From Microbotryum violaceum (Eukaryota), in assembly GCA_001244265.2 (NCBI GenBank), contig LN717261.1, forward strand, positions 1,937,591-2,001,590: a stretch of DNA of 64,000 nt, given 5' to 3'. Of the stretch, positions 18,731 to 64,000 are shown one piece after another. A program made the translations under genes and the position numbers. The number at the start of each line of letters is the position of its first letter. Position 1 is the stretch's first letter. Below the pieces are notes generated by a model. That model saw only the letters and a program-made list of their open reading frames with translations. It made no database searches and was not told the origin of the DNA.

Positions 18731-18759
18731 ACTCAACTGGGACCCGACGGCGCAGACAG

Positions 18760-32647: not shown

Positions 32648-34573
32648 ATGACGGTCGATCCTTTTAGCGACGGCTACGTTCCGCCCGCCTGGGACGCTGC
32701 GCGCCCGATCCCTACCTCCGGCCACCATACGGAGAAGGCGCTTTTGCGAATCGCGGAGGTATGGAGCGACGCAGACGCTGGCCTCCTCACGGAGGCGGAT
32801 GTACTGCTCATCAAGACGGAGGTCGAGAAGCAGTCACTCGATCCTGCAGCCCTCAACTTCTGGGAGAATCAAATCAACATGCTTCCCTTAGGTGTCGAGC
32901 TCAGCATCGAGTCGCTCGCAGATGCCGACATGCATCCCATCCTCGCGCACGCTTTAGGCTCATCTCGTCCAGCCGACTACATCGCTAGCTACGGAACTCG
33001 ATACTGGACAAAGAATCTGCAGTCGTATCGACTCCGCCGCCAGTCATCAGCAGGAGCTCTGTCAGCGAATCAAGCTTACAACGAGGAAGACGAAGCTGAG
33101 GACAACAGCGAGGACGCACACGATGACGCAGCACGCCGTGTCGCATCTATTCGAGGATTGGGGGACCTACCAATTTATGCCCCCAGCGAACTCGACACCG
33201 ATCACGACGGACGTCTCATCGTGCGCTCCAACCTGTTCATCGAAGGCGAACTTCCTTTATCTTCATTGCCTGCCGGCGATGAGGTGATGTACAAATACTC
33301 CTCCCTGCCTCGAGGATGGATCGTTACCGTCACCGCACCGGCCGCGACTCCTGCGGCTCTTCGTGCTTCGAAGCATCTGAAGCGCCCTACTCGGGAGGAC
33401 GACCAGTGGGATACCGAGGAGGAATCCGCCGACGAAACTTCGGAGGAAGCCCAACGTGAAGAGCTAATGGCGCAACTTAATCGACTTGCTCCTCAGGCCA
33501 GGAAGAAGAAGAAAAGCTTACCCGTCCCTTCGACCCGTCGGGCTCCAACCGCGTACCGCCCTTCCGCGCTCGCTCGCGGTACTCGCTCGCGCCAGGACGA
33601 AGACACAGACGACGAGGACGCCCCTTCTTCCATGTCACCCACTCAGGATCGGGACAAGGCAGCGCGGATGTACGAACAGACCTTGGCGATTCCCCCAACG
33701 GCCTACTCCGAGCTCCCCGACTACGTCCTCAAGCGAAGGGATAAGGAAGACATGTACAAGGAAGCCCTGACTTTCCACCGCTCGCACGTCTACCGACTGG
33801 ACAAACAGGCAGCTACCCTCAAAAAGAACCACGGTCTCAAACTCGACGTCATCGAAATCATGAAGGTCCTTACCGGCCAATTCGTGAGCGCTGTTGATGC
33901 CGACAATCCCGCACCCTCGGATTTGTTCTATATGTTCCAGCACTCCTCCGGTAGCAAGTTCTACGGGATCGAAGCTATGATCCAATCGAAAGCGTCCCTT
34001 CCCAAGAAGACGCTCTCGTATGCTGGACACACCGAAGCTTTAATGGAACTCGAACGACTTGAAGGGGTGGTCTTCAACTATCACCAAGGCCGGGATTGGA
34101 AGCACTACACGCGCTTCCTACGCGAGCTGGCGAAGGACTCCCAACTGGGTTTTGACTTCATGGTTCTCTACGACGACGAGTACCGTAAACAGCTCGCCGA
34201 CCCCGACAAGTCGGTCCACTCGCTGCTCGACGCGCATCTAGGCGACAGTGTCTACGCGAAACTGATCAGCAGGTGGCTAGCTCAGACGACTCCCTTTCGC
34301 AATGAGGGCCCGCCTGCGGCGAACCGCGGCTCCTCATCGCACTCTCGTCAGGGTTCAATCCCACCCAAGAAAAAGCGCAACAACGCCTGCAAAAGGTTCA
34401 ACAGAGGCGAGAACCACATTGAGGAGGACTGCCTTTATAGGCATATCTGCTCATCTTGCAAGGGTGGGCACGCAGCTAATAGTGCTGTCTGCCCGAACCG
34501 TCACCTCCAACATGGAGGACGTCTTGTCGTGGCAGCGGCCGGATCAGCGGCTGGTTCTGCCTCTCGGCAGTAG
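32648..34573 (+). CDS. Gag-like ORF1 of the YR retrotransposon (641 aa)
   Basis: Uninterrupted ORF; YDDEYRK segment and C-terminal CKRFN...CLYRHICSSCKGGH....C Zn finger typical of DIRS/Ngaro ORF1. Confidence 0.85.
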   Translation: MTVDPFSDGYVPPAWDAARPIPTSGHHTEKALLRIAEVWSDADAGLLTEADVLLIKTEVEKQSLDPAALNFWENQINMLPLGVELSIESLADADMHPILAHALGSSRPADYIASYGTRYWTKNLQSYRLRRQSSAGALSANQAYNEEDEAEDNSEDAHDDAARRVASIRGLGDLPIYAPSELDTDHDGRLIVRSNLFIEGELPLSSLPAGDEVMYKYSSLPRGWIVTVTAPAATPAALRASKHLKRPTREDDQWDTEEESADETSEEAQREELMAQLNRLAPQARKKKKSLPVPSTRRAPTAYRPSALARGTRSRQDEDTDDEDAPSSMSPTQDRDKAARMYEQTLAIPPTAYSELPDYVLKRRDKEDMYKEALTFHRSHVYRLDKQAATLKKNHGLKLDVIEIMKVLTGQFVSAVDADNPAPSDLFYMFQHSSGSKFYGIEAMIQSKASLPKKTLSYAGHTEALMELERLEGVVFNYHQGRDWKHYTRFLRELAKDSQLGFDFMVLYDDEYRKQLADPDKSVHSLLDAHLGDSVYAKLISRWLAQTTPFRNEGPPAANRGSSSHSRQGSIPPKKKRNNACKRFNRGENHIEEDCLYRHICSSCKGGHAANSAVCPNRHLQHGGRLVVAAAGSAAGSASRQ

Positions 34574-34618
34574 ATACCTTGAGGACGGCGTCGACTCACT
34601 AACCCCGGACGAGTCGTC

Positions 34619-36163
34619 ATGTCAGACGACAATGGACCTCCGGGCCATCCCTCTCTCTCTCACCTTTCGGGCCTCGGGCTGGCACCCAGGTACCAGAGGC
34701 AATTCCACTTCGACACACCCTCGAAAGACTACCCAACCACTCCTCTCTTTTCTTCGACTTCGTCGCTGGGCAGGCTCCCAGGACCACTCGCTCGCGCATC
34801 CTTCACCGTCGAGCGACTCGCAACCATCGCGGAAACTCAACGACTTTATCCCTCTCAATTCAATCTCACTCGAACGATTGACGATCGATATTTGGGGCGG
34901 CTTCTGGCAGAGCACCCCAACTCGATCCTGGTCAACTCCTTCATCTCCGCTTTCCGTACGGACGGATTTGAGCCACAGCATGATGGCAGTCATGCTCGCG
35001 GCGACGATCCCTCCACCGTACGGTTCCCAAAAAGCGAGCACCACCGCAACTTCATTCAAGCAACCATCGACGAAGAAGTTACGAAGCGCTGGGTCTCCCC
35101 GGGCTCCGCGTTCCCTCTACCCGGAGTCACCTACAATTCGATCTTTGTAGTCAAATCGGCCAACCATAGGATGCGTGTGGTGGCAGACCACACCTCCTCT
35201 GGCCTCAACGATGGGATCCAACGATCTGATTGTCCGACGGTGTACGATACTATCATCGATTTCATTCGCCTGCTTCGTTGGCATCGCTTCTCCTCAAAGC
35301 TCCTTACGGACAGCTCAGTCCTCTGGAAGCTCGACGTCTCTTCGGCGTTCAAAATTTTGGTCATGTCCAAGCGTTGGCAGGCGCGACAAGGCATAGCGAT
35401 CAAGCGAAAATTTTCCGACGGCAGCGTGCACACCTGGTACTACATTGAATGGCGCGGCGTCTTTGGCTGCCGAGCAATGCCGTTCCTCTGGACTAGGTTC
35501 ATGTCACTCCTAATGTGGGCGGCCAACAACACCTTTGGCATCGAGCACCCTCTCGCATACATGGACGACGCGTTCGGGATTGATCTGGGAGGATCAATGG
35601 TCCCCTTCGCGCACAATGGGGCGATTCACATAATCCCGGCCCAGCAAGCAGCGATGGCAACGCTGTGGGGCGGCTTGAAGATACCCTTCAAACTTTCACA
35701 AGAGAAGGCACCACACGGCAGGTGTATTACCATCACAGGCATTCGGTGTAACCTGGCCTCATTCTCGGTATCTCTCCCCGAAAAGTCGATATCCGACCTC
35801 ATCACGGAGATCGATGCTTTCCTCCTCGAACCAACCCGTCACCCGACGCTTCGCAAATGGCGCCAAATGATCGATCTCAAAGTCATCCACGTCCATGGGA
35901 AAGAGAACACTCTGGCGGATGACCTCTCTCGGCTGCACGAGGACCAGCTCCTAAAACGCTTCCATCCCTCAAGCAATTCGACCCCTTCATTCCAGGACTG
36001 GAGGGGACGTTGCTATGACCGCTATCAGACGAGAGGACGGACGGATTCTTGCTTTTGCGCCCCGTCCTCTCCTGGAGCATGGCCGTCGAGCGCAGCCCAT
36101 GCTTCCACTTGGCGAACTTCGTCGCCTGCGCGACGAAACCGCCCTCGATGCGCTCGAACCTAA
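34619..36163 (+). CDS. DIRS/Ngaro-type reverse transcriptase; RNase H core apparently deleted
   Basis: RVVADHTSSGLN, LWKLDVSSAFK, VFGCRAMP, YMDD. LRKWRQMI is then joined directly to DLKVIHVHGKENTLADDLSR, the RNase H C-terminal motif. Confidence 0.9.
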   Translation: MSDDNGPPGHPSLSHLSGLGLAPRYQRQFHFDTPSKDYPTTPLFSSTSSLGRLPGPLARASFTVERLATIAETQRLYPSQFNLTRTIDDRYLGRLLAEHPNSILVNSFISAFRTDGFEPQHDGSHARGDDPSTVRFPKSEHHRNFIQATIDEEVTKRWVSPGSAFPLPGVTYNSIFVVKSANHRMRVVADHTSSGLNDGIQRSDCPTVYDTIIDFIRLLRWHRFSSKLLTDSSVLWKLDVSSAFKILVMSKRWQARQGIAIKRKFSDGSVHTWYYIEWRGVFGCRAMPFLWTRFMSLLMWAANNTFGIEHPLAYMDDAFGIDLGGSMVPFAHNGAIHIIPAQQAAMATLWGGLKIPFKLSQEKAPHGRCITITGIRCNLASFSVSLPEKSISDLITEIDAFLLEPTRHPTLRKWRQMIDLKVIHVHGKENTLADDLSRLHEDQLLKRFHPSSNSTPSFQDWRGRCYDRYQTRGRTDSCFCAPSSPGAWPSSAAHASTWRTSSPARRNRPRCART

Positions 36164-37052
36164 AACCCGTTCAGACTACGCTCGCGCACTACGGCAGTGG
36201 ATTGATTTCATCACCTACTATCGTAGTATGGGCCACCACCTACCCTACGACCCCACTGAGGATACTCTCTCCGCCTTTATTTGCCACCGCTATCGGACGG
36301 TATCCTCGGTCTCCCAAACACTCTCAGGCCTGGCGTTCACCTTTCGCCCAAGGCTCGGTACGGAATGGGAAAGGGTTCGCACCTCGCAACTAGTCACGAA
36401 CACGATTGTCGGCGGCATCAAGTTGTGGCGACGCCCTCGGAAGCAAGCCAAACCACTAAGTTTCCGCTCAGTCGCTTTCGCGCTTCGCACGGCAGTGAGT
36501 AACCCTCGTCTTGACTACGACTCGTTACTGTTCGTGGCAATGGTCGCCTTGGGCTTTGCCTCCTGCGCTCGTAGCGCGGAGCTTGCGTTACCATCAACAA
36601 TCCGATTCCGCGACCCGGCCAAGCTCCCACGTCGGAGTACCGTACAAATGAAGGACGGTGGGTTCTCGGTCCATTTACCGTACCACAAGGCGGACCGCCG
36701 CTGGCAAGGCTCGTACCTCTACTTCACTTGCAACACCACCGCCCCCGTTTTCATCACTATTCTGCGTCGCTACCTTTACGCTAGGGATCAAAGGTGCCCG
36801 ACTTCCCCGCTCCTGTTTGTGACGAAGGCGGGGCTCCCACCCACCCGCACCTGGTTTGTCAGCCGCCTGCGTCGCGCCTTTGGACCGAGCTACAGCGGCC
36901 ACTCTCTGCGCTCGGGCGGCGCCACTCACTATGCTCTCAGAGGCCTCCCTGCAGAAGTCATCAAACGTCTCGGTCGCTGGCGCTCCACTGCTTGGGAGGA
37001 TTACGTTCGGGTCTCCCCTCAGCTGCAGCAAGCCCTCCTGAGCTCGGCATAA
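36015..37052 (+). CDS. Tyrosine recombinase (345 aa)
   Basis: CARSAEL (R), YHKAD (K), YSGHSLRSGGA (HxxR), LGRWRS (W), WEDYVR (Y): complete catalytic set. Confidence 0.95.
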   Translation: MTAIRREDGRILAFAPRPLLEHGRRAQPMLPLGELRRLRDETALDALEPKTRSDYARALRQWIDFITYYRSMGHHLPYDPTEDTLSAFICHRYRTVSSVSQTLSGLAFTFRPRLGTEWERVRTSQLVTNTIVGGIKLWRRPRKQAKPLSFRSVAFALRTAVSNPRLDYDSLLFVAMVALGFASCARSAELALPSTIRFRDPAKLPRRSTVQMKDGGFSVHLPYHKADRRWQGSYLYFTCNTTAPVFITILRRYLYARDQRCPTSPLLFVTKAGLPPTRTWFVSRLRRAFGPSYSGHSLRSGGATHYALRGLPAEVIKRLGRWRSTAWEDYVRVSPQLQQALLSSA

Positions 37053-37094
37053 ACCCCGTATCTTCCATCTCCCGATCATCAACAACAATACACA

Positions 37095-38014
37095 TTACGG
37101 GATGCCGGGTTTCATGCCTGATACTGCAACTCGACTCAAATCCCGCTACCTAGCCGCGCTTCTACGAAAGAGTCGATCGCTTTTCGGCTTTTGCTGCAAG
37201 AGTTTGACGCTGAGGACTTTAGCGCGCGCGACTTCAACACCCGCAGCCGTAAGCCGTGCCCGCACGCAGGCCTCTCGCTGTAAGCCGTGCCCGCACGCAG
37301 GCCTCCCGCAGTAAGCCGTGCTCGCACGCCTGCCTCGAGCATAAGCCTTGGCCCGTAAGCCGCACCCGCGCAGGAATCTCCCCAAGCACGCTCCCGCCGC
37401 ACTGGGTCAGTTCCGCACTGCCTGCTGTTGCCGTACCAGTATTCGCTGCGTACCTTTGCCACCTCCTGCCAAGGTTGGTTGCCGTCCTAGATCTCTTCCT
37501 GCCCTCACGCCTTCTGGCTGACAGGTTCCGAGCATCTCACAGGACCTCCCAGCGATACAAACACGCAACTGCCTCCCAGTCTTCTGCCCTGCCAGACTAC
37601 GACGGACAGCTGCCTACTGCGTACGCCTCTTCTTCTCAACCTTCCTTGTTGGATTGTTGACTGACTGTTCATACCCTGTATGCAGCCGTTTCTGCCCTAC
37701 ACCTGCCAGTGTAGCCGCACCTTATTTTCCTGAGTACCGAGTCACGCTCCCGGAGCTAAGGTACATCACTCCCCCGCATCAGGCTCTACCTTTTGGTACT
37801 CCTGCTCACAACTGTCCTTGTTGGGCATGTTGGCTTACTTGGCTACCTTGCGCTACAGACTACACTTGCCACCCAACGTGCCAGCGTTCAGGGTCGGTTT
37901 CCTTCTTTCAAGTGTGTCACGCTTTCCAAGCAAAGGTATGCCAAGCCTCCCAGTCTTTGCAAGCGAGATTTGAGTCGAGTTGCAGTATCAGGCATGAAAC
38001 CCGGCATCCCGTAA
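37095..38014. repeat. 53-bp inverted repeat pair (37095-37147 / 37962-38014)
   Basis: TTACGGGATGCCGGGTTTCATGCCTGATACTGCAACTCGACTCAAATC(C/T)CGCT, one mismatch. Confidence 0.93.
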
Positions 38015-38987
38015 CAAACGGAATGGGTTGAAAGAAAGTACCCACAAGACAAGAGACCCAGAGATCAGAAGAGAGATAATAAAAGAGAGAAAAGATACCA
38101 AAAAGGTTATTTTATTTTATTTTTAGGGTGGGTGGGAGGAGCTCAAAAATAGGACACTTTGCTTGGAAAGCGTGGATGCTATTAGTACTCAGAAATACTG
38201 CAAAGACTGGGAGGCTTGGCATACCTTTGCTTGGAAAGCGTGACACACTTGAAAGAAGGAAACCGACCCTGAACGCTGGCACGTTGGGTGGCAAGTGTAG
38301 TCTGTAGCGCAAGGTAGCCAAGTAAGCCAACATGCCCAACAAGGACAGTTGTGAGCAGGAGTACCAAAAGGTAGAGCCTGATGCGGGGGAGTGATGTACC
38401 TTAGCTCCGGGAGCGTGACTCGGTACTCAGGAAAATAAGGTGCGGCTACACTGGCAGGTGTAGGGCAGAAACGGCTGCATACAGGGTATGAACAGTCAGT
38501 CAACAATCCAACAAGGAAGGTTGAGAAGAAGAGGCGTACGCAGTAGGCAGCTGTCCGTCGTAGTCTGGCAGGGCAGAAGACTGGGAGGCAGTTGCGTGTT
38601 TGTATCGCTGGGGAGGTCCTGTGAGATGCTCGGAACCTGTCAGCCAGAAGGCGTGAGGGCAGGAAGAGATCTAGGACGGCAACCAACCTTGGCAGGAGGT
38701 GGCAAAGGTACGCAGCGAATACTGGTACGGCAACAGCAGGCAGTGCGGAACTGACCCAGTGCGGCGGGAGCGTGCTTGGGGAGATTCCTGCGCGGGTGCG
38801 GCTTACGGGCCAAGGCTTATGCTCGAGGCAGGCGTGCGAGCACGGCTTACTGCGGGAGGCCTGCGTGCGGGCACGGCTTACAGCGAGAGGCCTGCGTGCG
38901 GGCACGGCTTACGGCTGCGGGTGTTGAAGTCGCGCGCGCTAAAGTCCTCAGCGTCAAACTCTTGCAGCAAAAGCCGAAAAGCGATCG
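37174..38987. repeat. ~788-bp near-perfect inverted repeat (37174-37961 / 38199-38987) with internal ~31-bp tandem units
   Basis: Direct reverse-complement match, with one C-run indel seen. GTAAGCCGTGCCCGCACGCAGGCCTC units at 37249-37373 are mirrored at 38788-38912. Confidence 0.95.
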
Positions 38988-39222
38988 TCTGTCTCATACT
39001 TTTTACTACTGCCGGATCTGGGCTCCGAATAACATGATCATGGGGGATGCTACCCAAAACCAGAACATTGGCATTGCACTGCAGCCATAGTCTGCGCACT
39101 ACACTGAGCGCTCTAAACAGTTACCTATCATAAGATGTCATGACGAGATCACAAGAACAGTAGTCAGGCTTCGCTGAAGCATTCGACTTTTCCGACCATT
39201 TATAGGCGCTCAGAAATTGTGC

Positions 39223-48424: not shown

Positions 48425-50684
48425 TGTGTGTGTGTGTGGTGGTGGGGGGAAAGTTGAACCCAGCCTCTACTGCCCTCTCCTCCCCCAAGCTCCTCCCGCC
48501 CTCAGCTTCAACCTCTCCTCCAAGATGATCCTCCTCCTCACAACACCCTCCATCCTCGTCCCCCACTTTTGCATCCCCCACCTCCCGCTGCTGATCATCT
48601 CCAAGACCAGCCCGGTGAATATTTCGATCGTCCTGCCCGCTCCTTCTTGATCGCGTAGACTGGCCTTGAGCTTCGGAAGTCCGAACATGCGTTGAACAGC
48701 CGTGTAATGCGTGTTGTCGATCGTGTCGAGCCCCAGTGCGTCGCAGAGCACGCTCCTTGCCGCGATCCAAACATTCCCAGAGTCAACGCAGTCGAAGAAG
48801 TAGTGCTCCCGATCGTCCTTAGGCGCTCCACAGACGAGGCACGCGGGCGAGTCGTCGTGCTTTTGATGAAACTGCAGACTCCGAGTCGGGATGAAGTTTC
48901 TGACGAGCTTGAACCACACCTCGCGTTCCCTCGCCGTCAATGCCTTCGAGTTGACCCCCTTCCAGAATCCCTTGATATCGTCGGGCTGCAGCGAGTCCCT
49001 GAAACCGATCGTGTCGGTGAAGGCCTTTGCATTCAAGACTCGGCGGACGCGACGGATGGTGTATGGCCAATCCATGCTGAGCAAGTTGTATTGTGTTGAT
49101 TGGTCTGGGAGAGCCGGTCTCGGAAGGCGCTGCGGCGGGTCGATCGGATGGGGCAGGATCGACTCGAGCGGCGTGGTGGGGCGGACCTCGGATCTGGGGC
49201 GGACTCGGGAGGCCCGTTGATTCGTACTGCCGCCACCGGTTGAGCTATTGGTGTGAACCTTAATCGATTGATCGCATGCCGGTACCATGCCACAATGTGC
49301 TCTCGTTGTGGGCGGCCCCGTTGATCGTATTCGCTGTTGCTGACGACCACATCCGTCGGCGGCGTCCAGAGATGAAAGCCCCCGCCCGGGTACAGCTCGC
49401 GTCGAAACAGGTCCGCTACCTTGGCGTAATTGGCAAACGCAGCATAGTCGGCGTCGTAGGGTGATCGCGACACAGCTGGTGCTCCCGGTAGTAGTGAAGG
49501 GTGTGCAACTTGATCGGAAGAGCGAGAAGATTCGCGAGCGTCAACGTCCTCGGTTTGACTTGCGCATTGTGCGTCGATGGTACCTTCAGCACGGCCTGCC
49601 ATCTTGGGTGTAGATCGGTTCGGATTGGAGTGTAGTCGCAAGGCCACGCATCAGTTGCCAAGTCAAAGTCGGGGGCGGGATGGGCTCGTACAATTGCCGC
49701 GCGCGCAAGTCCCTGCCAGATCGCATCCGAACCGCCAAGAAGCACATCCCAGACGCGTGCCGCAACCGAGTCGACGACGTCCTGCATCCGCATGACCCCA
49801 AGACCCCCCTTGAACCTCGGTGTGAAGACGACGTCCTTGCCATAGCACGACCTCCTCTTGCCGCCGCCGACAAAGTCGACAAGAATGCGATCAAGCTCCT
49901 TGACGACCTCGAGCGGTGGGATGTCAGCGGAGAGGATGTGCAGAATCTTGGGAATGGCGTATCGGTTGACGTAGAACGCTCGGGTGTGGTGTGTGAGCCC
50001 CCGGTCCCGTGCCGAATCGAGCACCGCTTCGAGCCGTGCGACGAGATTCACGTTGGCGAGTTCGGTGTTGCCGGTGGGGTCGAAAGATAGGCCGATCCAC
50101 TCGAGCGACTCGCCCTCGGCCTTGACGACGAGCGGACGATCGCCAGCCTCCCAGCGACACCCGATGGTCAGTACGACGGTCTTTTCGGTGTTGAGCCGGC
50201 CATTGGTTGCGAGCCTCCAGTCGAGCGCCAGGTCGTTGAGCAAGGTGAGTGACTCCGAGCCCGCGACGGCGACGACGATGTCATCAGCAAACGCAAGAGA
50301 TGTAATGGCGCGGCTCTGTGGGTAGGGGTGAATGGTAGGAAGCGAGAGGTTCAGCGCGATGCCTCGACGGTGCAGAGCATCCAGGAACGGCTGGAACACG
50401 ACATCCCAGACCGACGACGACGCCGGGTCCCCTTGGCCGAGCCCACACGTCAGCCGCACCGGCGGAGTCAAGAAGCCGTTGATGATATATCGCGCCGTAG
50501 TCGAGTCACCCGAGTAGAGCATCCTCAGAACGCGTTGGAAGGCGGCAGGAGCGCCGAGAGCGTCGAAGATGGCGAAGATCCATTCGTGCTCGACGAGGTC
50601 GTAAGCCGACGATTGGTCTAGAGACAAGAGCGCCGCGTCAGGGAACTCGGTGCCGCGCGCGCCCAGCTCCTCGATCAAGCACCT
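48425..50684 (-). mobile_element. 5'-truncated LINE (L1/Tx1-like RT plus zf-RVT), frameshifted
   Basis: LSLDQSSAYDLV, GLGQGDPAS, FADD, LNTEKT, KGGLGV, then CLVCGAPKDDREHYFFDC. (CA)n-like tail near 48425-48445. Confidence 0.9.
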
Positions 50685-50921
50685 ATGCGGGTCAAAATAA
50701 GCTTAACAAATATACTACCCCGTGCGTGGCGAGTTAAGGGAGCTTTTTGGATATTTGGCCCAGGAAAACGTTGGTACGGGCTAGGTGCACCATTGCCCTG
50801 CCAAACCCCAGCCCCCCGGAGGCAAAAGTGGTCACTAATTCGGGCACTTGCTACCTATCTCCGCTAATGGTCCATCTGCCTCAGCACGACGAGTTCCCCG
50901 CACTTCCCTCCACCCAATGCC

Positions 50922-53900
50922 TTGCAGGCTTGCACCCATTGCTTCAAGCATGGACATCCTACCACACACACCACCACCTCTACAACCTCGCTCAGCATCG
51001 CCAGTCGGAACAGAGAAGGGAAAACGCCTGACAAGACCAAGCGCAAGAAGAGCACGACCGTGAGGAGGAGGAGGAGGAAGAAGGTGACCAGCAGCAACAA
51101 GGACACGTTCGAGAATGGGGCCACGACGTCGGTCGGAACGGAGGAGGAGGCGAAGACGAAGAAGATGAAGAGGAGGAAATTATGGACCAAGCGAGTACGG
51201 AAAAGGGAGCCATCGTTGTCCCCGGATAGCGAGCTGTTCGACAAGACGTTCGGCTTCAACTTCGGCATTTTCCGCTCTGCAACGAAGAGGCGTCCGAAAC
51301 GTCAGCCGGGCCCTCCCCTATCACCATCAGTCCAGAGGTCAACGCGTCGTCGGAAGGAGCATTCGGAGAAATCCATTGCCGGCCTCCACAAATCATCGTC
51401 CGAGCTTTGGCCTGACACTGCCGATGGCGCAACGGCGTGGCCTCTAGACACCGAGACCGACGGCTTCGAGCACAATTTCAAGCCTGACAGCGCGCCCGAC
51501 TTTGAGCCCGACTACGACTTCGGTCGCGACTTCGGCGGTGGATACTCATCTGGACCGGAGCATTCGCCATTCCACCCAGACGGTGCTTCTCAAGACCAAG
51601 CGCCCTCTTCACTTAAGCCATCGCAGATCGAGAGGAACGCCAAGAAGCAGCGCAATCGTCGCCGGAATGCGAGGGCCAAAGCCAAGACTAGGGCGTCAAA
51701 ACGAGCTGAACTTCTCCAGGTGTACCTATTGATGAAGAAAAAGGCCAAAGGAGTGCATCGACAGAGCGGGTTTGTCCCTTCCCCGGACGACGAGGAGTGG
51801 TGCGACGCATGTCATGAACGCCGAGTCACCAGAAAGGTCCGGGTTGTCAACCTGTTTTTTGCAGGTAGGTGCTTCTGTTGCACATCTTTTGTCAATCACC
51901 CCTACGCTATCGTCTTGGACTGATTTGATATCCCCCAACCATGAGCAGGCATGCGAGAACTACGATACTGCCCATGCTATCCCGAGATCCAAACCCTGGC
52001 AGCTCACGGTCTTCTCCCGACGTCGTCATCTTCAATCCGAAAAAGAGAAAGCATCACCGCATTCACCTTTCGCACGATCGAATATCTCGACACCTACTGG
52101 GGGTAGATCCTTTTGGTATCTATGACATGTCCAAAGCGCTCATTCTCTTTTGGTCCTCTGAATTATCTCCGGAGGATCCTTTTAACAAGGTGGGCTCTGG
52201 ACAGGGACAGGCCGGAAACATTCACTGTTTCTTACAGAAAATATTGGAAGCTTCCCAGGGTCCAACCGTGCGTCAGCATCTTCAAGCCGCAATGGATGAA
52301 TATTCATTTATGCAACAGCTGCAGGCAACTTTTACCGCCGAAATTCTCGGCCTCTCCCCGCGCGAGCGTCTGGCCGACGTTAGTCTGGCATGTTTTGGGC
52401 CTCGGATCGATGAAGCCGGCAAGAGCGAGAATGACCTCGATGTCATCATTGCTGTCGACGGCAATTTTCAGCATCGACGATTCGCGCGGGCAACTGCTGA
52501 ACCTCTCAAGTCACGTCCAGCGTTATTCCTGCCACCAGACAAGATTCGAAACGAGCAAGCTTTGATCGACGGATCGACTGAAGCGGGCGAGAAGGTACCT
52601 TGGTGCTGCTGATGCCGGGTCACCCGAACCCAATAATGCGTTGACCCGACTGCCTGTGATTGCTAAACGGGCTATTCTATCATACAGGCCGAATGCACAG
52701 CCAACTGGAAGGCCGCAGATGGTGGTGTGACATCCGCTTCATCAAATGTAGTGGCCAACACAGGCCTCGTTGCTGCAGTGTGCCGTCATGATCATTGCCT
52801 GCGACTTTGCAACCTTCATCAATCAGGTGAAAAGTATGTGTGGACCGGCCATCTGTGACTCCAGGCAAGGACACTACTAAGCGAATTTGGTCTACCGCAG
52901 GTTAGTATATCCCGTGTCGCTGTTGAAATGGATTCTCGAAGAAGTTGAAGTCGGAGAAACGGATTGTACTACGGGGCCTGCGCGTACCAGTGACGCTACA
53001 AACGTCGGATCCAGCTCGGGATCGGGCTCCCACCAAAGTTCGAGTCAGGATCGAAGTCGCGTCAGAGTCGCGTATGATTTCGCCTGCAACTTATCGTCGC
53101 ACTTACGCCGTGTGAGTTTGTTCGTGACACTCAGCCTGAGCATTGGCTTAGTCCGTAGCTGAGCAGCTCATCTCTCCCCGGTATGCGCAGCGCAATCTTC
53201 TGGCAGACCACTTACCGCGTCTAGAATTTGCTCTCTCGTCGATGCATGCCTATGCGCACAAGTGGTCCTGCCAGGTTGACTTTGATCCGCGCTTTCTACC
53301 CAATTTTGGTTTGACTGATGCCGAGGGAGCCGAGCGCTTGTGGTCGCAGCTTTGAGGCATGATACCCATGAATGGATCATCCAGTGCCTCCCATCGGCTG
53401 GAGAACATCAATCGTCGAGCGTCTGCTTATAACAAGCAGCATCTGGCCGAACTTGGTTCGCCTAAGCGTCCAGTCTTTCATGCACTACCTTACCATGTCG
53501 CTGATCTTTGGCGTATCGATCATGCCAGTGACCAAACTTATTTATCGACTCAAAAACGCAATCAAGCTCAAGGCCGAAGCCGACAGTCATTGCTGAGGTC
53601 GTTAATCGCTCCGCCGAATGGACGGTCGCTACCCTCCTTGAACAATGACACGCGCAACGTGCAGCGTCCAAGCAGATCCCTCTGAAAGAGCAGCGCAAAG
53701 AGGTAGCCGAGATGCGCAACGTCATGTTCAAGCTTGAGCTGATTAACGGAGACATCGCAGCAAGCCGGTGAGTCTGAGCTATCGTCGTCGTTTGGGAGTG
53801 AGACACGAACCGGTAACCTAAATTCGGTATTCATTTTTCGATTGCTACAGGGGAGACCTAGCCTGCGTGAACACCATAGATACGAACAAGCTTATAGAAC

Positions 53901-55122
53901 AGTCGACTAAACTTCAACAGCTGGTCAAACAACGGCAGGTTCTTGATGATCGACTGAACTCCTTACGCACGTCGGACATAAACATCAGTGTCCTGGACCC
54001 TGGTATGTCACTCCCTTCTTCCATTCTGACCCTCTGGTGTGATCCCCGTTGTCCTCGCTTAAATATTTCAATACCTTTGATTGGCACACACTATGAATCT
54101 GCCTGCACATTGAGTGTCGCATCTCGCTCGCTGTGGGACTTGGTCGTACAATATCGACGGGAGCCGAGAAGCTGCGGCTCCCGCGCCTAGGCGGTAAAGC
54201 CCTCGGTAGGAAATCCCGGGTACGAGTCTTCTGCGCCGGCAGAAGGAACGCTGATGTGTAGCAATGCCAGCTCATAGGTACGAAAGCGGCTGGTCTCCTG
54301 GTCAAGAATCTTAATTCTTTGCGTCCACGACTCATGAAGGCAGTGGCGATGTATAACGACGAGGTGAAAAAGTATGCTGCCATCCTCGCCAATTCTCAGG
54401 ATTCCTATCCGATCTTGAGAACCCGAAGGATACCGCCATCAGCCCCAGAGGATCGCAACGAAGTGCTCAAACTCAACATCTTCGTGCCGCTCTGGAACAA
54501 CAGATTATATAGTCATCCCACTGAGCCGTGGGCCTACGATGATGATGTTCGTGTCGGCATTCCAGCAGTATTGTCTCGCGCAAGATGCCAGCAAAAAATC
54601 AAGCGACTTGGATAGGAAGTGCGTCGCATTGGACGGTGGCTGATAAGCCGTCGCAAGAGGTTTCAGCAAGTTCGCAAGCAATTACCCCAACTAGATGAGC
54701 AGGATGACTCTGCGATGATGCTGCTCGAGCAAGTTGAAGAAGAGCGTCTTAGAACTATTGCGCGCCGATGGTTTTCGAAGGGCGACCTAGATCACCTGTG
54801 GGAATGCACCCGGCAAACCGGCAAACCGCAAATGGAGGAGTGGGTCGAGCTTCAAATGTGGTGCACCGACGACGTTGATGTTTTTCAACGAACCACAGCG
54901 GGTGGCTTGCCGGATCACACATGGCCAGATTGCATCAATGATGGGATGGTTGGAGAGTCGGACGACATCACCACGGATCATGACACCCTTCTTGACATCA
55001 GTGATCATTTGAGCGATGATCTGAATCATCATTCCGTCGACACTACCGATTACGGCGCCTTCAGTGACGAGATCAACGAGAACTTTGATGAAGACGATGG
55101 CGATGTTTTTTGGGGGATTTGA
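50922..55122 (+). mobile_element. KDZ (Kyakuja-Dileera-Zisupton) transposase gene, intron-containing, pseudogenised; start approximate
   Basis: LACFGP..IIAVDGNFQHRR, GLVAAVCRHD..CNL.QSGEK, YDFACNL, MHAYAHKWSCQ.....GLTDAEGAERLWS. In-frame TGA at 53353-53355; acidic C-terminus. Confidence 0.9.
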
Positions 55123-58100
55123 TATTGATCATATATAGTTGCAGTCTTTTGCCCAGTTGCTACTTGCAATAGTAAAGAGATCAATGATGTGTTCATTTCG
55201 CTAGTAATTCTACCCGTTATACGACGCTTTGCCAGGAAGTGCAACAAGGGCGATCAGACATCCAAGACCCGGCATCGCTAAATCGCTCGATCTTGCGGTG
55301 GCTCGCCTAATGTCGCTCGAGTAAAGCTGGCAGCCGGAGCCCAACACGACCGGTAAGATTTAGAGGAAGAGCGCGCTACACTGAGGGAGTGAACACAAGC
55401 GTTCATTGCATCTTCTGTGCTGACTGCGCTGAGATCTCCTACATGTAGAATTCACCGCGCTCCCTGCCAGTCAGTCTCATGCGCAGTCCGTGTCGTGCCT
55501 TGGGTGACACTTCCCGAACAGGCAGCAGGGATTGCAAAAGTACTTATTATATTCCAACATTGCCGACTACATTTTGATGTATACTTGAACGAAGTCCTGA
55601 TCCGGCTCACAGCCCCAACGTCGTACAAAGGTCTTCTGTGGTGTTGCCACGGCCACTCCGAGGCTCACACTCGCCCAGCTCCGTAGAGTGTTTGCCTCGG
55701 CACTTGGTTGATGACTTTTCAAACGCAAGGACCAGAAGTTGATCACCCCTAACAGTCTTTTTCGATATGATGTAATGAGTTATACATTGGTGGCACTTTA
55801 ATGAGCTCTGTGCTAAGTTGCTTATAGCCAGCGTACTGCTTTGTCGCAATTCCTTCCTGCGTAGTTCACACGCTCACTGTAATCTCGATGCGAAGTACAT
55901 CATCACGGGCGCTTGCGTTTCAACAGTCGAACTGCAGCAAGTCATAGTCACCCATACCCAAAGTATTGTGCTGTATATGACTGAATGAAGCCACGAGGGA
56001 GTCAGATTTACCTGATACACCCCTTGCTCTGTCGTTGCTCTACGTTTTCTTATCGCATTAGGCGGCTTGAGAGTTCTGCACGCTGTTGTGGCCTAGGCCT
56101 CCTTCTAATATCGACCGACCGACCGCCCTGCCGTGGTTTTCGGCGATGGCAGGTCATATAGTCTTTTGTGACACCAATCAGGGTTCAAATTCAAGGTGGA
56201 CAACACGTCGTGTTGGAGTCAGACTGAAAGTACCCAAACCGGGAGGGTGTTTTCAAAGTTCTTCTCGACAGGACATACCGTCTTGTCATCATTGTGATGG
56301 TGATCTTCTTGGTCTTCAGTTGGGTCTTATAGTTGCGACGATGGGTGAATTTAGGATGGGACATGGAAGGAGAGGTCGAGCTGTCGCCTGACCCCTGTAT
56401 TGCAGTCCCACCGAATGCCCTCACAGTTGTCCACCGTCCGGGTTTGCGGCGCGCAGGCAATTGAGGGTTATGCAGTGGCAACCGGTCCGACCTGAAGGTG
56501 AAGTCAGATTGTATCTAAGGGAAGAAGACAACGGTAGGCCAAAAGGTCAAACAGGCTTATGCAACGAGACCCGGTCAATGGTACGGCGCCTTCGGACGAA
56601 GCATGGATACATGGATATGATAATGATTAGGAGGGATCGGTTCCCAAGTGTGTTTGAAACGGGAGGCGCAAGAAACGGCGATGAGGTCGAAGTTGGAAAA
56701 GGTGTATGGCCATTTCGTTGTGCATCACAAGTTCAGAAGAAGAAGAAGAAAGAGGAGATGCGTCGGCCCGAGAGCCATTCTAATTTCGTTGACCCAAAGG
56801 TAAATAGATGCGCAGAGATGTCACCTGCATGGATGCGAGCGCCAGGCTGTTGTGCTGCGGCCCATGCGGTGCGCCCCGAGTCCTTGTAGGACAAAGGTGC
56901 GAAACGATTGGTTGTGAAGGAAGACTCCAGCGTAATCTCTGGAAGGGGGGCCGTAGATGAACGGGATGCCGGCGCCGGGAGCACACAGGGGCCCCCGGGC
57001 CTTGACGTAGGAAACGGTCCGCTGGGGGGGGGGTCGAGTATACCCAGTGATCTTGGCGGAGCCTGACAGAATGAGCATTTTGATCATATTAATTTGCAAT
57101 CCTGTTAAGATTAATCGCCACAATCAAGATGGCAGCTGAGACGCTGTATGCGTGCATGACAATCATCTGAAACTAAACTCAAGAATCTATACTGAAAGAC
57201 GCGTCACAAACCACAGAGACATAACAAATATCGGTCATCTTGCAGACCGACTCAGAGCATAGTATGCCCAAAGAAAGACATAAGAACGGTCTCAATCCAT
57301 CGACGATGTTTTGCTTCATTCATCCTCCGGTCTCATCCGCCACCGCAAATCAGCCAGTGATAATCGCTCTGCGGTTGCACTATAGTCAGGCGCGATTGGC
57401 ATATGGGATGTTCGATCCGGAAAGTATGGGCCGGACTAAAGTCGCGTTCATGGCCACCACCGTACTCGCTGTGACGTTCATCATCCCAATCCATCCCACT
57501 CGGGTTGGCGGCTTCGTCGAAATCGGCCTGAATCGGAGGGCCCATTGGAGGCCGAGGAGACGGCGAGCTAGCTTCGCCACGAGCATGTTCATTGAAGGTT
57601 CTTTGCTGAATTTGGCGCGCAGTGTACGTAACCATGTGCCGGGTTCCGGGGATGTTGGTGCGGAGTCGAGCGTCCGAACGAAGGCCTCGGGGCTTTTAGT
57701 CAAGATGTCCGACAGTCCCTCGAAGTAGTTAGGTCGGAACTTGAAGCGATTTCATTTATGCCTGCCCATTGTCTGATACAGATTCGAGAACGCGTTACTG
57801 TGTGTTACAATAGTTGGTGCTCGTCTTAGAACTGAGGCGGGTCTGATTTGGCCAGATCGGCAGGTCCATTAAGCCAGCCAAAAAAACTCGTGCGCGCACG
57901 CGCGATAAGGCAGCTTTTCTGTTTTTTGGCCCGGGGGGAGCTTGGCAAAGGGATGGTGTACCATTGCTCCCCCCTCGCACACTCTGGCACGGTGCACCTC
58001 TCTGGGCGTCCCACGAGCCGTGAAGCGAAGCTTATCAGCTAATTGGTATTAGAGTTATCCCTATAGATAATACCAATCCTCATTTACCAATGTTCCCAAG

Positions 58101-60689
58101 AGTCGAATTCGGAACCGAAATGCGATATACACCCAATACCGCCTGCTGACGAGATGGAGGATACAACTAATGCACAGGTAAGACAGCTGCTGTATTGACC
58201 TTCTGCCCCCCCGCCCCCCTCCCTCCTAATTTTCTGTTTCTCTTCACTCACTACTTACTACCCCTGATTTTTTTAATTAATTCAACAGCAGTACAATCAT
58301 AGGGAAAGTCGGAGCGAATGCAGTTGAGCACACTGACTAGTAGGTCAGCTTCGGAGCTTCGGATCTCGAGATGGGAGTTTCCTTTTGCCCAGTCATCTTG
58401 GGCCCTACTGGGTCTTAAGGGTATTAATGGTGGGACCAAAAAGCTGACTGGTCACTTGCTGTGAAGTGTATTAGATATATAAAAAATGTGGCTCACGGTT
58501 TCCCTCCCGCACTTTGAAGCTTTGACCTTGGCCCAAGCACGTGCACATCGACGCGTCGATGCACACTGTGTGACTAAATGCTCCTCAAATTGAGTCGGAC
58601 CAGGTTCATGATTGGTCCCACTTCTTGTTTCATGTTCCTGTTCTTGTTCTTTTGCAATGATTGATTGGGAGCGATCTTACACCTTGTCCAAACACGACCT
58701 CATCGCTGTCTCTCGCGCCTCGCATCTTAACCAATCGGATCATTTTGTGATAAGTTGTTCCGCATCTCGATAGTTGACACAAAGCACGCAAGGGGACCAC
58801 ACCGGTGACATTTCCGGTAGGACGTTTCAGAATTTGGGTGTGTAGCTCTTCATTCTTTCATCACCTGATTGTGTCCTGTTCTCTGAAGTGCGACTTGATT
58901 TCTGACAAATCGCACTTTTCAGAGTGCATGCATGACACGGGACTTCTCGCTTGACCCTCAGCTGCGCACCCAACGCAGCATCGGACAGTGCAGTAGAAGG
59001 CTGTGGGCAAATCGATGGGAAGTGCAATACAGAGGGCGACTGGTAAATCTCAGGTTCTATCTGCCATGTGGAAACCCGAGTATTCAAGACGATTTCGATC
59101 GCAATGTTGACCACCGGTGGATTTTCCCCGCGCCGGGTACCCTGACTCAAAAACCTAGTCACTTTCAGTGCCACTACAATATGATCTGGTGATGACCCTC
59201 GTTCTTACAAAGATGATTTCAAGCAAACAAAACCGAGGAGACCGATTGAGATACCACCAGAACTGTCATCTGCAAAGGCTGCGTTGGTCGACAGTAGAAA
59301 CAGTCGGAGGCCAGCAATAGCTCGCAGGCCACTCGTGCACTCTGATGCGAGGAGGAATGGTAGAGTACGAAGAACAACATCGTGATCCTGACTCAATGAT
59401 GTTCGTTCAGGTGTATACATTCCACTTTTCTGTCCATAGCTAACTCCGAGCTTCCGCCTTTACGATGTAACAGTAGTACATGTACCGGTGAGAGCACGCA
59501 ACGGATCGGGCCACACGGCAGAGAGCACATGAAAGGCGCAGGTGTGATTGGCATCAAAGTCACCTTTTTCTCAGCACCGGGACAGATATCATTGGTATAT
59601 TGTCAAACTCATTCCTCGTTATCAAACTAGAATGAGTTCAATGATACACGAACATCCTGTCAGGGGTATTAAGTGCGTCGTCATGTATCTGAAATGTCGA
59701 GAATCCGATAATGTCGACGCAAACATACAACTGTCTAAGTGGCTGCGTGGCTTAAAGTGGCCAAGACAACAGATCGAGCTAATCTATTTTCCCTTATACT
59801 TTTTGGCTTTTTTAGTGCCGAGACTAAAATAAATAAAAAACCTTGTTCTAGTTTATGACCTAATACAGCCATGATGTATTTTTTTCCAAAAATAAAAAAT
59901 AAAAAGGACTCTCTTTTTTCATCTTTAATTAGTCGGCTCTAAAATAAATCGAGGGCATTAACTGATAATCCGATAATTAGCACCTAGGTAGTGCAGAAAG
60001 CGTTACAATTGATTCTACAAGCAATCTGGGAACCTACTTTCAGTCCCCTGTTTTCATTCCCTTTTTATTTTATTTTCGACAGTTTATTAGCTCATGCTAT
60101 ATCAAATTTTCATTGAAAAGCACCGAAAAACAGATCGAGTATGGGACCAGATTAGCCTTTGTTCGAGTACACATTAGAGTGTGGGGATAAATGGAGTCTG
60201 ATAATTAGCAATGTGATCTCTGCTGAGATCTCAGGAAGTATCAACAAAGACCTGGCACGGACTTCGGGCAGCTGACTGGCCTGACTGCGCACGCTATAAA
60301 CACCAAACGCAATGGCGGAAGTTTGAAAGCGCACTAACTAAGCGCAGCCAAGAAGAATGCCCGCTTATCTTATCGCCAGAAGCAGAGAGCTTTCCTTCTG
60401 GATCTTTAGCTGACCTGTTAGACCTCCAGCTGTCGGCACTACTGCTGGGCAGTAACCTTTTCAAGCAAGCTAGAGCGCATTCAAGCGGTAGCCAAACCCT
60501 GTCAGCGTTGGTTGCTTCTCGGTCGTATGGTTGCTACTTTGCATTCCCTGCACTTCCGAGGGAAGGGCAATATTGTAAGACATGAAGAGACACTAGTCAA
60601 TGAAAAGGCAAAAGCACGCGAGCGCTCGCAGCATCTGTTTGGATTAAGGCTTTTGGAACAAGAGCCTTCGATTCCAGACAGCTATTAAA

Positions 60690-61140
60690 AATTTCCCAAG
60701 TTTCGTCATCACTGCCATCATCTTCCGCATTGAGCTCCCACTCCTCAAGCACAAATGCACCGTTGTTTGTGGCGTCGATAGAGTGATGACTCAAATCGTC
60801 GCTCGAATGATCACTCATGTCAAAGTCAACTCCTTCGTTCGTGTTGTCGTCCTTCCCATCAATCGTGTCACCAGGGCTGTGTAAGGCTCGGTTGCCTTAC
60901 GCTATTTAACTACCCTTCTGATTTCACTATGCATCTATTGAAATCGTCAGTCTTTTGGACCGTGTAAGCTAGTCGTGAAGGGCCTGGGGTATTACAGGCT
61001 GCGGGCAAACGAAGTCAAATCCGGCAGGCCATCCGCTGTCGTTTGCTCAGCGTCGTCGGTACATCAAAGCCCAAGCGCCACGCACCCCTCCACCTGTTGT
61101 TCGCCCATGTCATGGGTGCACTTCCACAGGTAGTAACCAA
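60690..61140 (-). pseudogene. Diverged 3' fragment of a second KDZ-type transposase
   Basis: MSDHSSDDLSHHSIDATNNGAF...TWEI parallels ISDHLSDDLNHHSVDTTDYGAF...FWGI at ~55000-55120; a YLWKCT segment parallels HLWECT. Confidence 0.7.
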
Positions 61141-62039
61141 GGCTCGGGATCGATGGCTCTGATGGAAGGGGCTCCGAGTCGGTCAACGTGTCGGACGCGG
61201 CCTCGTTGGGTTGCCGTAAATACTGTGGTACTCGGGATCCGGTCGCATCCGCTATTTCAATTTCTCAAGGCTAATAGAAGTCGTAGCGGCAGTAAGTTCT
61301 GGACTCGGGCGTCTCGACGAGTCATTCCCGGCGGCCACGAGAGGAGGGAGGCTAAAGCCGGCTTACGGGAGGGAGAGGAAGAGGATGTAATTTCGAAGGG
61401 GCCTTCACTTTTGCGCCGCAAAGACTCGGAAAATGACGAGCATTGGTGGGATCGGTAAGGCAGCATTTGGAAGGAAGACCGAGCCCGATATGCGGAGGAA
61501 GCGGTGAAGGGGAACGAACAGAAAGCAGCGGTTTGAACTGCCGGGACTTTTGAGGGGAGTTTTCTTCTTGTTTTCAGGAAAACTTCCAGGATCCAACACA
61601 ATTTTTTCTTGTCTCTCACTTTTTGCGTGTTTCAAGTCTCGTTTGGCATCGTGTCCAGCCTCCGACCTCAGCGTTTCGTTCTCGAACTCGGTCTCGCTTC
61701 TCGATTCTACCCCCACTGCAGTCTTTCGTGTCTCTCGCCTTGGCGTCTTAAAAGCTATTAGTAATACCTTAGCCTTTTATTAACGCACCGCGGGGCGGCG
61801 ACCAGTCCCGAGATGGCGTTGCTCCACACTCGACGCGGGTCTCGACGACGGTCTGAGCCCATCATTGTGCTCCCAGAGAACAAAAAAGGAGTTCAGTGAT
61901 GAAATGAAGGCTCTGTAAATCTGATCGTCGTCGCACGCTTCTCTACTGACTTCAACCACTACGCTTCCGTTACTCAGCAGTACCGCAGCTGTTGCAACCA
62001 AGTACATCACATTGCAGGTCAACGGTTACGGTGTGAGGT

Positions 62040-62270
62040 GGCGGCGCGCTCCACGCGCCGCCGAACCTAGTCTTTACCCTAACTAGTTACCCTAACTAGT
62101 AAAAAAAAAGTGAGTTAAGGAATGTACCTAATCAGAAAAGCTTTGACCACTAAGCTATCCGGCCCCTGATATCAGTGCAAGGTCTACTAACACCTTCAAC
62201 ACTTCCCCTTAGACCTTTGCACTGCTGCCAGGCTATTGCAATGTGTTGACTCTAAGTCCCAATTGGACTC
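62040..62270 (-). mobile_element. Possible Copia-type 3' end (PPT plus start of LTR)
   Basis: Minus strand ...QLGL-like codons, then AGGGGAAG immediately followed by TGTTGAAGG (62203); no matching second LTR found. Confidence 0.4.
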
Positions 62271-62532
62271 TGTGTCAAGCTTTTGCAGCAGCTCCGGTAA
62301 CTTTGTGCAGCGTCATTGGAAAGATTTACATGAAAGGTTCTATAATAGATCCTCGTAGAGGCCAGGGATTCTTGGGCTCAGTATTCATTAGAAAGTGACC
62401 AATTGGGTATTGCTTAGACGTTGTTAGGCTCCGCGTGCAGAAGCGGCTTAGTTTCTCCCCATCCGCTTCTCAATGTGCTTTTGCTGATCAAGGAGTTGAT
62501 TTCCTCAACGTCTCTAAGAACTCTATATTATG

Positions 62533-62809
62533 CACATCAGAGGCACATACCTTACAGCAAATACAGACACTAACGCGCTCCAAACGCAAACAGCGCGACT
62601 GTTCACCGCGCCGCGCAGCTGGGCCCGGCTATGCCCTGCGGCCTTGTGCTTCAAAGTTCGACCGGAGGGCGGAAAATGTCCAAAAATGAGGTGAGCCTCG
62701 ACCGCTTTTGAGCCAAAAATGTCCAAATTTGCGGGCTGCCTAGCCGATTTTCCGGTCCCCAAAATGTCCAAATCTGCGGGCCGCCTCTGGCTGGGCTTTC
62801 GGGGGTCCT
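62533..62809 (-). mobile_element. Solo terminal fragment of the 13860-15055 TIR family
   Basis: Inverted near-copy of 13860-14160 with a ~22-bp internal deletion; ends ...GGCTTTCGGGGGTCCT at 62809. Confidence 0.9.
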
Positions 62810-62970
62810 GCTATAGCATCTGTCATCGTGTACACTACATTGCAGGGGCGCTCTCAACTCCAGCATACGGAGATTGGGGGATGGGAACTCGGGCGCGCTC
62901 GGACCTCTTTAGATTCTGACTTAGATTACCCGAGGCAGCGACTAGCGCGGCTCTCCCTCTCTTTTCCCTT

Positions 62971-63267
62971 AACGTTCCCTATCCTCTTCTACTCGGCATC
63001 TTCGTTTGCTCACTGCGCTGCTCCTCATAGGTTAGTGTAATACATTTCGAACGTTCCCTATCCTCTTCTACTCGGCATCTTCGTTTGCTCACTGCGCTGC
63101 TCCTCATAGGTTAGTGTAATACATTTCGAACGTTCCCTATCCTCTTCTACTCGGCATCTTCGTTTGCTCACTGCGCTGCTCCTCATAGGTTAGTGTAATA
63201 CATTTCGAACGTTCCCTATCCTCTTCTACTCGGCATCTTCGTTTGCTCACTGCGCTGCTCCTCATAG
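62971..63267 (+). repeat. Perfect tandem array, 79-bp unit, ~3.8 copies
   Basis: AACGTTCCCT recurs at 62971, 63050, 63129 and 63208; the units are identical. Confidence 0.97.
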
Positions 63268-63346
63268 CATCCACGGGAGAGAGAGGGTTCGTGCGCGCAA
63301 GCCTGAATCGGCGCGTCAAATCCTTGCAGCAAAAGCCGAAAAGACC

Positions 63347-64000
63347 ATTAGATATTGAAGGGGCGCAGGTTCCGTTCCGCTTCACTTCGGTCCGAGATTG
63401 GAGCATAGCACGACAACATCATCCCATGCAGGCCTTGAACGATGCTTTCGATTGATCATTGCCACTCACCAACATGAACATGACGATCGCCGAGCTCCTC
63501 GCCTTCGATGTCGCTCCCGCCGACGCGTCTCTTCACATCGAGTTGTCCAAAGACGAGCACACCCAGTACTCGACCTTATCATCTACTCGAGGCCGTTGAG
63601 AAGGCAACTGAAACAGCTTCTCACGACCAATCGTGCGTCTACCAAGCTCAACTATCGAAATTTCGGTCTAAGCTCACGCGTGTTCGGTTCTACACAGCCC
63701 ACACACTTGAAACTTCAACTGCGCCTCAAGTTATCGATGCTCGTGATACCAATTTCTCGCTGAACTGGCCAACCTGATTGCCCATCAAGCTGCTCAAAAG
63801 TGTGGCCACCTCAAGCTGTTCTACTCGAGGGAGGCCGATGGAATCGAGCGACCCAACTCGGGGAGAGGCAGGCGTAGTAGGGGTTAGCAATACAGAGGAA
63901 GGACGCAGTGCAGCACATTCATGCGTCTAGAAAGGGTTGGTACAGTCCATGGGACCACATCGCTGCGAAGACATGGCGGGCACGACAAGGAGCTTTCGCT
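63347..64000 (+). repeat. Dispersed repeat, inverted copy of 21003-21651 (runs off the window)
   Basis: Direct reverse-complement match. Confidence 0.92.

Follow-up and report, generated by a model that had tools for sequence, protein, structure and literature searches.

The 64-kb window analysed here (the whole stretch of 64,000 nucleotides) is fungal DNA that is rich in transposons and also carries spliced host genes. Among its transposons are what we take, from familiar motifs, to be a copia reverse transcriptase (RT) remnant at 10200-11200 (plus strand), a Helitron remnant at 15500-19800 (plus strand) and a spliced KDZ-type transposase at 50868-55200 (plus strand). LINE-like RT and zf-RVT matches lie on the minus strand at 48470-50702, and a DIRS-like element, with RT and tyrosine-recombinase-type matches below cut-off, occupies 32574-38998, its end duplicated in inverted form (37163-37961 and 38199-38998). 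A terminal-repeat family with AAAATGTC subterminal motifs is present in both orientations (9583-9779, 13860-14024, 14943-15056, 19983-20017, 21777-21979 and 62645-62809) and has very many copies in public runs. ARAGORN reports a tRNA on the minus strand at 28722-28795 with anticodon TTA, which would read a stop codon, so that decay of a tRNA, or a repeat derived from one, is the probable explanation; an identical 31-nt GC-rich stretch occurs at 10184-10214 and 61779-61809; and 63347-64000 is an inverted copy of 21003-21651 (98.5% identical).

Near the right-hand end of the window lies a tandem array of three 79-nt units, 100% identical to one another, each of which is 67% pyrimidine, begins with GTTAGT, ends in CATAG, carries GCTCAC at unit positions 57-62 with 17 nt to follow, and contains AG at unit positions 4 and 78 only (Table 1). 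The initial annotation had described three phased GT...AG units with a pyrimidine-rich body, a branch-like GCTCAC about 17 nt from the end and a CATAG terminus, joined back to back with no exon between them, and on each count the letters bear it out: AG/GT joints of this kind occur at 63109/63110 and 63188/63189, and the same joint is also found at 63030/63031. It had placed the array at 63031-63267, of which the 3' limit holds, but the true start is 62971, a leading 60-nt copy having been overlooked (Tandem Repeats Finder gives 62971-63267, with 3.8 copies and 100% matches). This leading copy is the key to the structure of the array. Writing X for the 60-nt sequence and Y for a 19-nt spacer, the layout is X(YX)3, and the units abut as AG/GT because each is Y-X and X ends in AG. 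A minus-strand reading of the unit was rejected, there being no AG/GT in the unit on that strand. No other copy of the unit occurs within the 64-kb window, and a 26-nt piece of X gave no match in metagenome contigs. Folding of the array was not significant (z = -1.87), with a weak hairpin over each AG/GT joint.

Table 1. Features of the array and its immediate surroundings, in window coordinates.
Feature	Position	Strand	Remarks
Multi-copy element end with subterminal repeats	62531-62809		not part of the LTR; ends 11 nt before it; inverted copy at 13860-14160; loose contig ends behind 62809-62813
Left target-site duplication, GCATC	62816-62820	+	LTR start fixed independently by contig ends at 62820/62821
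Solo copia-type LTR	62821-63266	+	446 bp (288 bp with one unit); TGT ... CATA
Unique 5' part of LTR	62821-62970	+	would correspond to a U3-like part
Leading copy X	62971-63030	+	60 nt; identical to the last 60 nt of every unit; presumed exon copy
Branch-like GCTCAC in leading X	63008-63013	+	leading X ends in AG
Unit 1	63031-63109	+	Y at 63031-63049 (donor GTTAGT), then X; branch-like motif 63087-63092; AG 63108-63109
Unit 2, identical	63110-63188	+	branch-like motif 63166-63171
Unit 3, identical	63189-63267	+	branch-like motif 63245-63250; last G outside the LTR
Right target-site duplication, GCATC	63267-63271	+	supplies the G of the final AG

The array almost certainly forms the 3' part of a solo copia-type LTR. 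The 5-bp duplication that brackets this LTR has a chance probability of about 0.001, and the LTR starts with TG; its end is CATA by contig ends, and the local letters are also compatible with an end in CA at 63264 and a duplication of 7 bp. We prefer the CATA end, which the contig ends favour, and atypical copia termini exist (PMC3701649). The array had been said to stop precisely at its last AG (63267), and the repeat does stop there, but the final G comes from the target duplication and the element itself ends at 63266: the stop coincides with an AG because the LTR ends there and the target duplication starts with G, and not through selection on the array. In a 5' LTR, the first G of the primer-binding site (PBS) would complete the AG, as the G of the target duplication does in the solo LTR. 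No TATA motif was found in the window LTR and no long frame crosses it (72 aa at most), the five frames tested from 60217-63760 had no Pfam match, and Rfam gave no match to E 0.1 over 62400-64000. A single expanded solo LTR is, by itself, probably inert. To the right of the LTR, 31 nt at 63313-63343 match the terminus of the DIRS-like element (37180-37210 and 38951-38981), and the flank has 9 nt in common with an acceptor-like site near 38175; the insertion target may have been a remnant of a related element. On the minus strand at 38224, the DIRS-like element itself shows an 18-nt terminal repeat followed by GTATGC, a second copy 68 nt on and a branch-like TACTAAT, a similar repeat-GT layout.

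The family to which this LTR belongs can be followed in public sequencing runs, of which 20 of the 24 listed carry part of the sequence (best share 0.63), no RNA run being listed as a carrier; contigs, and contigs only, from four of the 24 (X4, X15, X16 and X19) were compared with the one-unit stretch 62700-63079. Loose contig ends with mixed flanks precede 62820/62821 in at least three contigs of X4, at least three of X15 and at least one of X19, runs that belong to three studies, and contigs of the same three runs stop at 63029, at the CATA end of X, such that the LTR behaves, among the contig ends listed in three runs, as a dispersed repeat with fixed ends and varied flanks. A purine tract precedes the LTR start in at least one contig of X16, and X is followed by PBS-like letters in one contig each of X15 and X19 among the pieces listed; family contigs thus show what full-length copies should have, a PBS behind the 5' LTR and a purine tract ahead of the 3' one. 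No copia gag-pol was seen for the window LTR family in the 30 letters in view past the PBS; elsewhere the same LTR-end/PBS motif precedes copia gag matches (below). The PBS motif presumably pairs with initiator tRNA-Met, and copia elements mostly use tRNA-Met, according to the part of PMC7773854 available. Contigs of X4 and X16 cover X-Y-X, and therefore the spacer Y belongs to the LTR family; the X16 copy has two differences in Y, and a contig from X16 has C at donor position +6. X-Y-X is the normal 3' end of this LTR family, with the unit normally present once.

Coverage was not counted as evidence in this comparison. As it stands, Y is covered by no contig of X15 and by a short piece only in X19, and in X4 the contig depth is 690 in Y versus 1443 in the unique part, depths likewise not counted as evidence. 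A mix of one-X and X-Y-X copies fits these gaps and depths and was set aside on that ground. Run X16 shows the purine tract, the unique part and a closed X-Y piece, and nothing of the neighbouring element, a pattern that was considered as an RNA 3' end and set aside, as low-cover DNA would look alike. No spliced joint is listed for the four runs; in 31-letter words, such a joint has the same sequence as the natural end of X. Among the pieces listed, none joins the LTR to its left flank and none spans the array. The latter, together with the perfect identity of the units, would suit an error of copy number in the assembly, the locus then having one or two units; we regard this as very improbable, given that both LTR ends and the target duplication are intact and that assemblers in general collapse such repeats more often than they expand them.

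The unit has the attributes of a U2 intron: a GT donor, a branch motif, an AG acceptor and a length in the host range, with AG directly followed by a GT donor at the array junctions, as for introns separated by exons of zero length. For comparison we assembled 16 introns of three host genes, which read as open frames of 844, 314 and 564 aa once the introns are taken out; the set is small, was picked by eye and checked by open frames, and two uricase boundaries had an alternative. These introns measure 49-127 nt (median 71.5, n = 16), and the size of 79 nt falls, as had been claimed, among those of host introns. (The shortest of them, a 49-nt GT..GAG gap at 2895-2943 with a poor branch site, is the only gap that restores the helicase frame and may be a frameshift rather than an intron.) With a donor, branch and acceptor matrix built from the 16 introns, the unit scores 16.7 bits, about the middle of the leave-one-out range of the host introns themselves (7.0-26.2). 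A score as high was reached by 65 of the 8961 79-mers taken from the window and by 120 of 20000 shuffled versions of the unit (0.6-0.7%), each null 79-mer being treated as a tandem unit and given its best rotation on either strand, in a test made after the unit had been seen. The unit is more intron-like than chance, and we think it probable that in the LTR family it serves as a spliced intron; judged on sequence, the units could be removed recursively, one step at a time.

The case against splicing holds that the unit is an ordinary variable LTR repeat whose AG/GT look stems from an old duplication of the LTR end and the first PBS bases in a pyrimidine-rich region. The letters that follow X are alike in the spacer and the PBS (GGTTA), the expected outcome of a duplication spanning the LTR/PBS junction; among local donors GTTAGT is not the most common, T at donor position +3 is found in none of the 16 host donors, and position +6 varies. 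We nevertheless judge an unspliced repeat to be unlikely, as the intron score is reached by only 0.6-0.7% in the two nulls and as two observations in other families, described below, tell against it: GT follows the upstream copy and not the downstream one in three loci, and in two clusters the downstream copy lacks a GT..AG intron exactly. A known model of intron birth is the tandem duplication of a segment containing AGGT, which puts AG/GT at both junctions and makes the intron wholly of duplicated sequence. AGGT stands at both ends in the window LTR family and in the metagenome loci L053 and L105, but in the one-unit form Y is present without duplication, and GT is missing behind the downstream copy of L005, L081 and L085.

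The initial annotation had also raised the possibility of a snapshot of intron multiplication. As a spread of introns into genes this is not supported, for the window holds no other copy of the unit, and the listed contig pieces place the unit inside the LTR family; nor, within the window, does the array resemble introners, which are near-identical introns at unrelated host-gene sites. The array is not an instance of intron spread into genes. Multiplication in the narrower sense, in which an excised intron or intron circle would be copied by a rolling mechanism or inserted back into the junction it came from, would account for the exact head-to-tail AG/GT joints and the perfect identity. We give it hardly any weight: both the leading X and the stop at the LTR limit belong to the normal LTR of the family, no dispersed copy occurs in the window, and nothing calls for a further mechanism. 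In particular, the idea of an intron circle copied by the rolling-circle route was dropped, both array ends being LTR features.

The same layout recurs in other copia families. A search with a 17-nt motif spanning the LTR end and PBS returned 107 metagenome loci and one locus from a viral collection, in 59 clusters, about half or more of which are probably chance or bacterial (several have bacterial domains), none being dropped from the counts; in 28 of the 108 loci the flank is only about 300 nt. Pfam was run on 54 cluster representatives, the five clusters without a 60-aa frame being left out, and a copia gag match lies behind the motif in 10 of the 54. Direct-repeat segments in the form of a copy ending in AG, then GT and a second copy ending in AG (the module, below) make up 13 of 37 on the LTR side of the motif versus 0 of 52 on the gag side (108 loci); the 13 are not independent, and two of them end at the motif used for the search, which by itself imposes the shared AG and GT. 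These 13 segments represent 10 loci in 4 of the 59 clusters, all end no more than 62 nt from the LTR end, and their donors are GTACGC, GTAAAC, GTACAC, GTATTT, GTATGT, GTAAAT and GTTAGT. Three of the four clusters are copia, with a gag match (L053, L017), an integrase-side match (L029) or copia polyprotein relatives (L005), the fourth being that of L081. The window LTR had no blastn hit to the module loci, which are therefore independent families.

At the threshold used, the module is absent from 8 of the 10 gag-positive clusters and is therefore not needed for copia life. None of the 10 module loci has more than two copies, so that gains are not common there. Y is richer in A than X in 9 of the 10 and in the window LTR. 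In L081 and L085 the repeat start is preceded, at 30-36 nt, by a TATA-like motif, and none was found in the other 8 (in L053 only 15 nt upstream are in view). In L005, L081 and L085, GT always follows the upstream copy and never the downstream one. L054, a one-X form, is 94% identical to what remains of L005 once the unit is taken out; the unit counts seen, in different families, are zero (L054), one (10 loci) and three (the window LTR). L021 and L022 lie on one contig with two PBS motifs facing away from each other, and L036 has a second PBS-like site 141 nt after the first.

More telling are L085, L053, L102 and L105, in which the repeat lies about 150 nt before the PBS motif and there are two introns. 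In L085, and likewise in L053, L102 and L105, the upstream copy holds an extra GT..AG intron of 47-53 nt, and the downstream copy lacks exactly that. Once the intron is removed, the upstream copy is 100% identical to the downstream copy in L085 (54 nt) and L053 (36 nt), and, over 42 nt, 88% identical in L102 and 95% identical in L105; the first intron of L105 ends in GG, not AG. The two copies of L053 are 100% identical to each other versus 71-79% to L102 or L105, as expected if one copy was remade from the other; L102 speaks against this, its downstream copy being 98% identical to that of L105 versus 88% to the upstream copy of L102 itself. In L017, which is related to L085, the first intron is kept and the second part differs. 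In two clusters, then, the downstream copy appears to be the spliced form of the upstream copy, which would need a spliced RNA at least once. These spliced copies come from families other than that of the window LTR, and suggest that the RNA is spliced at its 5' end and the intron restored in strand transfer. The initial annotation had proposed a splice-neutral expansion in a mobile element, and in outline this stands, in that the array lies in a solo copia-type LTR, the unit is intron-like, and the same layout occurs in unrelated copia LTRs with signs of past splicing, but removal of the units at this locus is a candidate only.

The explanation that we consider best, with a probability of roughly 0.45, is that the intron of a copia LTR is rebuilt at strand transfer, that the array records two gains in this process, and that a solo LTR was then formed. 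Y-X would be a spliceosomal intron in the 5' LTR. Transcription would start near the first X, and splicing would join the first X to the PBS; the copy in the 3' LTR would be left unspliced, the RNA ending within the second X. The steps of first strand transfer are taken to be the standard ones (as outlined in the available text of PMC12789967): strong-stop DNA would consist of spliced X, would jump to the last X at the RNA 3' end and, by copying on through Y, would rebuild X-Y-X. Were the 5' end left unspliced, strong-stop DNA would be X-Y-X and the same jump would add one unit, and a jump to the first X would leave one unit less. Two gains would give X(YX)3, after which the element would have integrated and recombination between its LTRs would have produced the solo LTR. 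If the solo LTR is transcribed on the plus strand, its units could be removed one by one, joining X to the flank. A downstream copy of spliced form is what such a cycle predicts, and would be hard to obtain by DNA duplication alone.

The main competitor accepts the same LTR and a real, rebuilt intron, and has the extra two units made in DNA after integration, by slippage, by unequal exchange between the 60-bp copies of X or by an out-of-register crossover as the solo LTR formed. Perfect direct repeats 79 bp apart are a substrate for such events, a solo LTR has by definition passed through recombination, and no expanded form is seen in the 10 module loci elsewhere; intron-containing repeats of ~107 nt that vary among Cryptococcus strains have been ascribed to slippage, unequal crossing over or conversion, in the part of PMC2395259 available. 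Against this, getting from one unit to three takes two gains, of which the first has no more than 60 bp of identity to work with, and a single out-of-register crossover between two one-unit LTRs would be expected to give two units, not three. Both routes give the same sequence, and the odds lean modestly to strand transfer: that the gain took place there rather than at the DNA level has, in our estimate, a slightly better than even chance, and the DNA-level account as a whole we hold to be rather unlikely.

Retroelements are expected to lose introns because they are copied through RNA, and the rebuilding of an intron at strand transfer, if real, would be a new answer to that loss. It might also answer how a short LTR avoids its own poly(A) signal at the 5' end: our guess is that the A-rich Y holds the signal, so that splicing would take it away from the 5' end and leave it in service at the 3' end. 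The array would be the predicted gain product, a by-product of the rebuilding cycle, and a natural substrate on which to study back-to-back removal of short fungal introns, should it be possible. More tentatively than for the locus itself, we suggest that several unrelated fungal copia families keep one or two LTR introns by a cycle of splicing and rebuilding, that unit number counts splicing failures in retrotransposition, and that the window locus is a three-unit product of reverse transcription, removable step by step.

Solo copia LTRs, repeats in LTRs and tandem gain of introns are already known. Recent copia bursts have occurred in Microbotryum (10.1101/2022.08.03.502670, the main text of which does not use the word 'intron'). 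Like Ty1/copia solo LTRs, the window LTR starts with TG, has a 5-bp target duplication, and belongs to a family with a purine tract and PBS in other copies and with dispersed near-identical copies; unlike them, it ends, in the preferred reading, in CATA and not CA, and carries an intron-like unit, threefold, after a copy of its own tail. Introns in maize retrotransposon LTRs average 1.3 kb and lie in LTR-contained non-coding RNAs, in a preprint whose available text terms its data the first evidence for LTR introns (bioRxiv 10.64898/2026.05.08.723830), and the pseudo-LTRs of Penelope, which is not an LTR element, have a 75-bp 5'-UTR intron (PMC8557442). In both systems a spliceosomal intron is retained within a retroelement's terminal repeat, or beside it, despite passage through RNA, but no exon-copy tail and no rebuilding at strand transfer are described for them in the text available. 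The Cryptococcus gene CNN00420 (PMC2395259) likewise has identical introns tandemly multiplied, in varying number, in a basidiomycete, but as far as the source at hand goes its ~107-nt repeat takes in the ends of exons and is part of a host gene, whereas in the window the period is the intron itself, with no exon between units, and the setting is an LTR.

A 5' splice site immediately behind a 3' splice site is also seen in S. pombe SPNCRNA.445 (10.1101/226894), by which stepwise removal at abutting AG/GT is known in a fungus, and in abutting U2 introns (PMC6616335); as given in the accessible parts of these reports, those cases are non-repetitive and proven by RNA, whereas the joints in the window arise from tandem copies and are known from sequence alone. 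Introners, which include copia solo LTRs acting as whole introns (PMC12130899, available text), are alike in that a transposon supplies the splice sites, and differ in being removed whole from host genes, whereas the window LTR interrupts no host gene and resembles an intron in an inner part only. In HIV-1 and foamy viruses, U1 at the splice donor suppresses the poly(A) site of the 5' LTR (PMC12789967), which suggests a possible reason for a donor in the R region; in those viruses, going by the text available there, the donor is downstream of the LTR and there is no rebuilding of an LTR intron. Neither an LTR intron that has an exon-copy tail nor its tandem gain is described in the literature searched, which is mostly outside subscription titles, and the intron-keeping cycle is apparently undescribed. 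What these findings add to the known systems is a module present in 4 of 59 metagenome clusters, in two of which the downstream copy reads as the spliced form of the upstream one.
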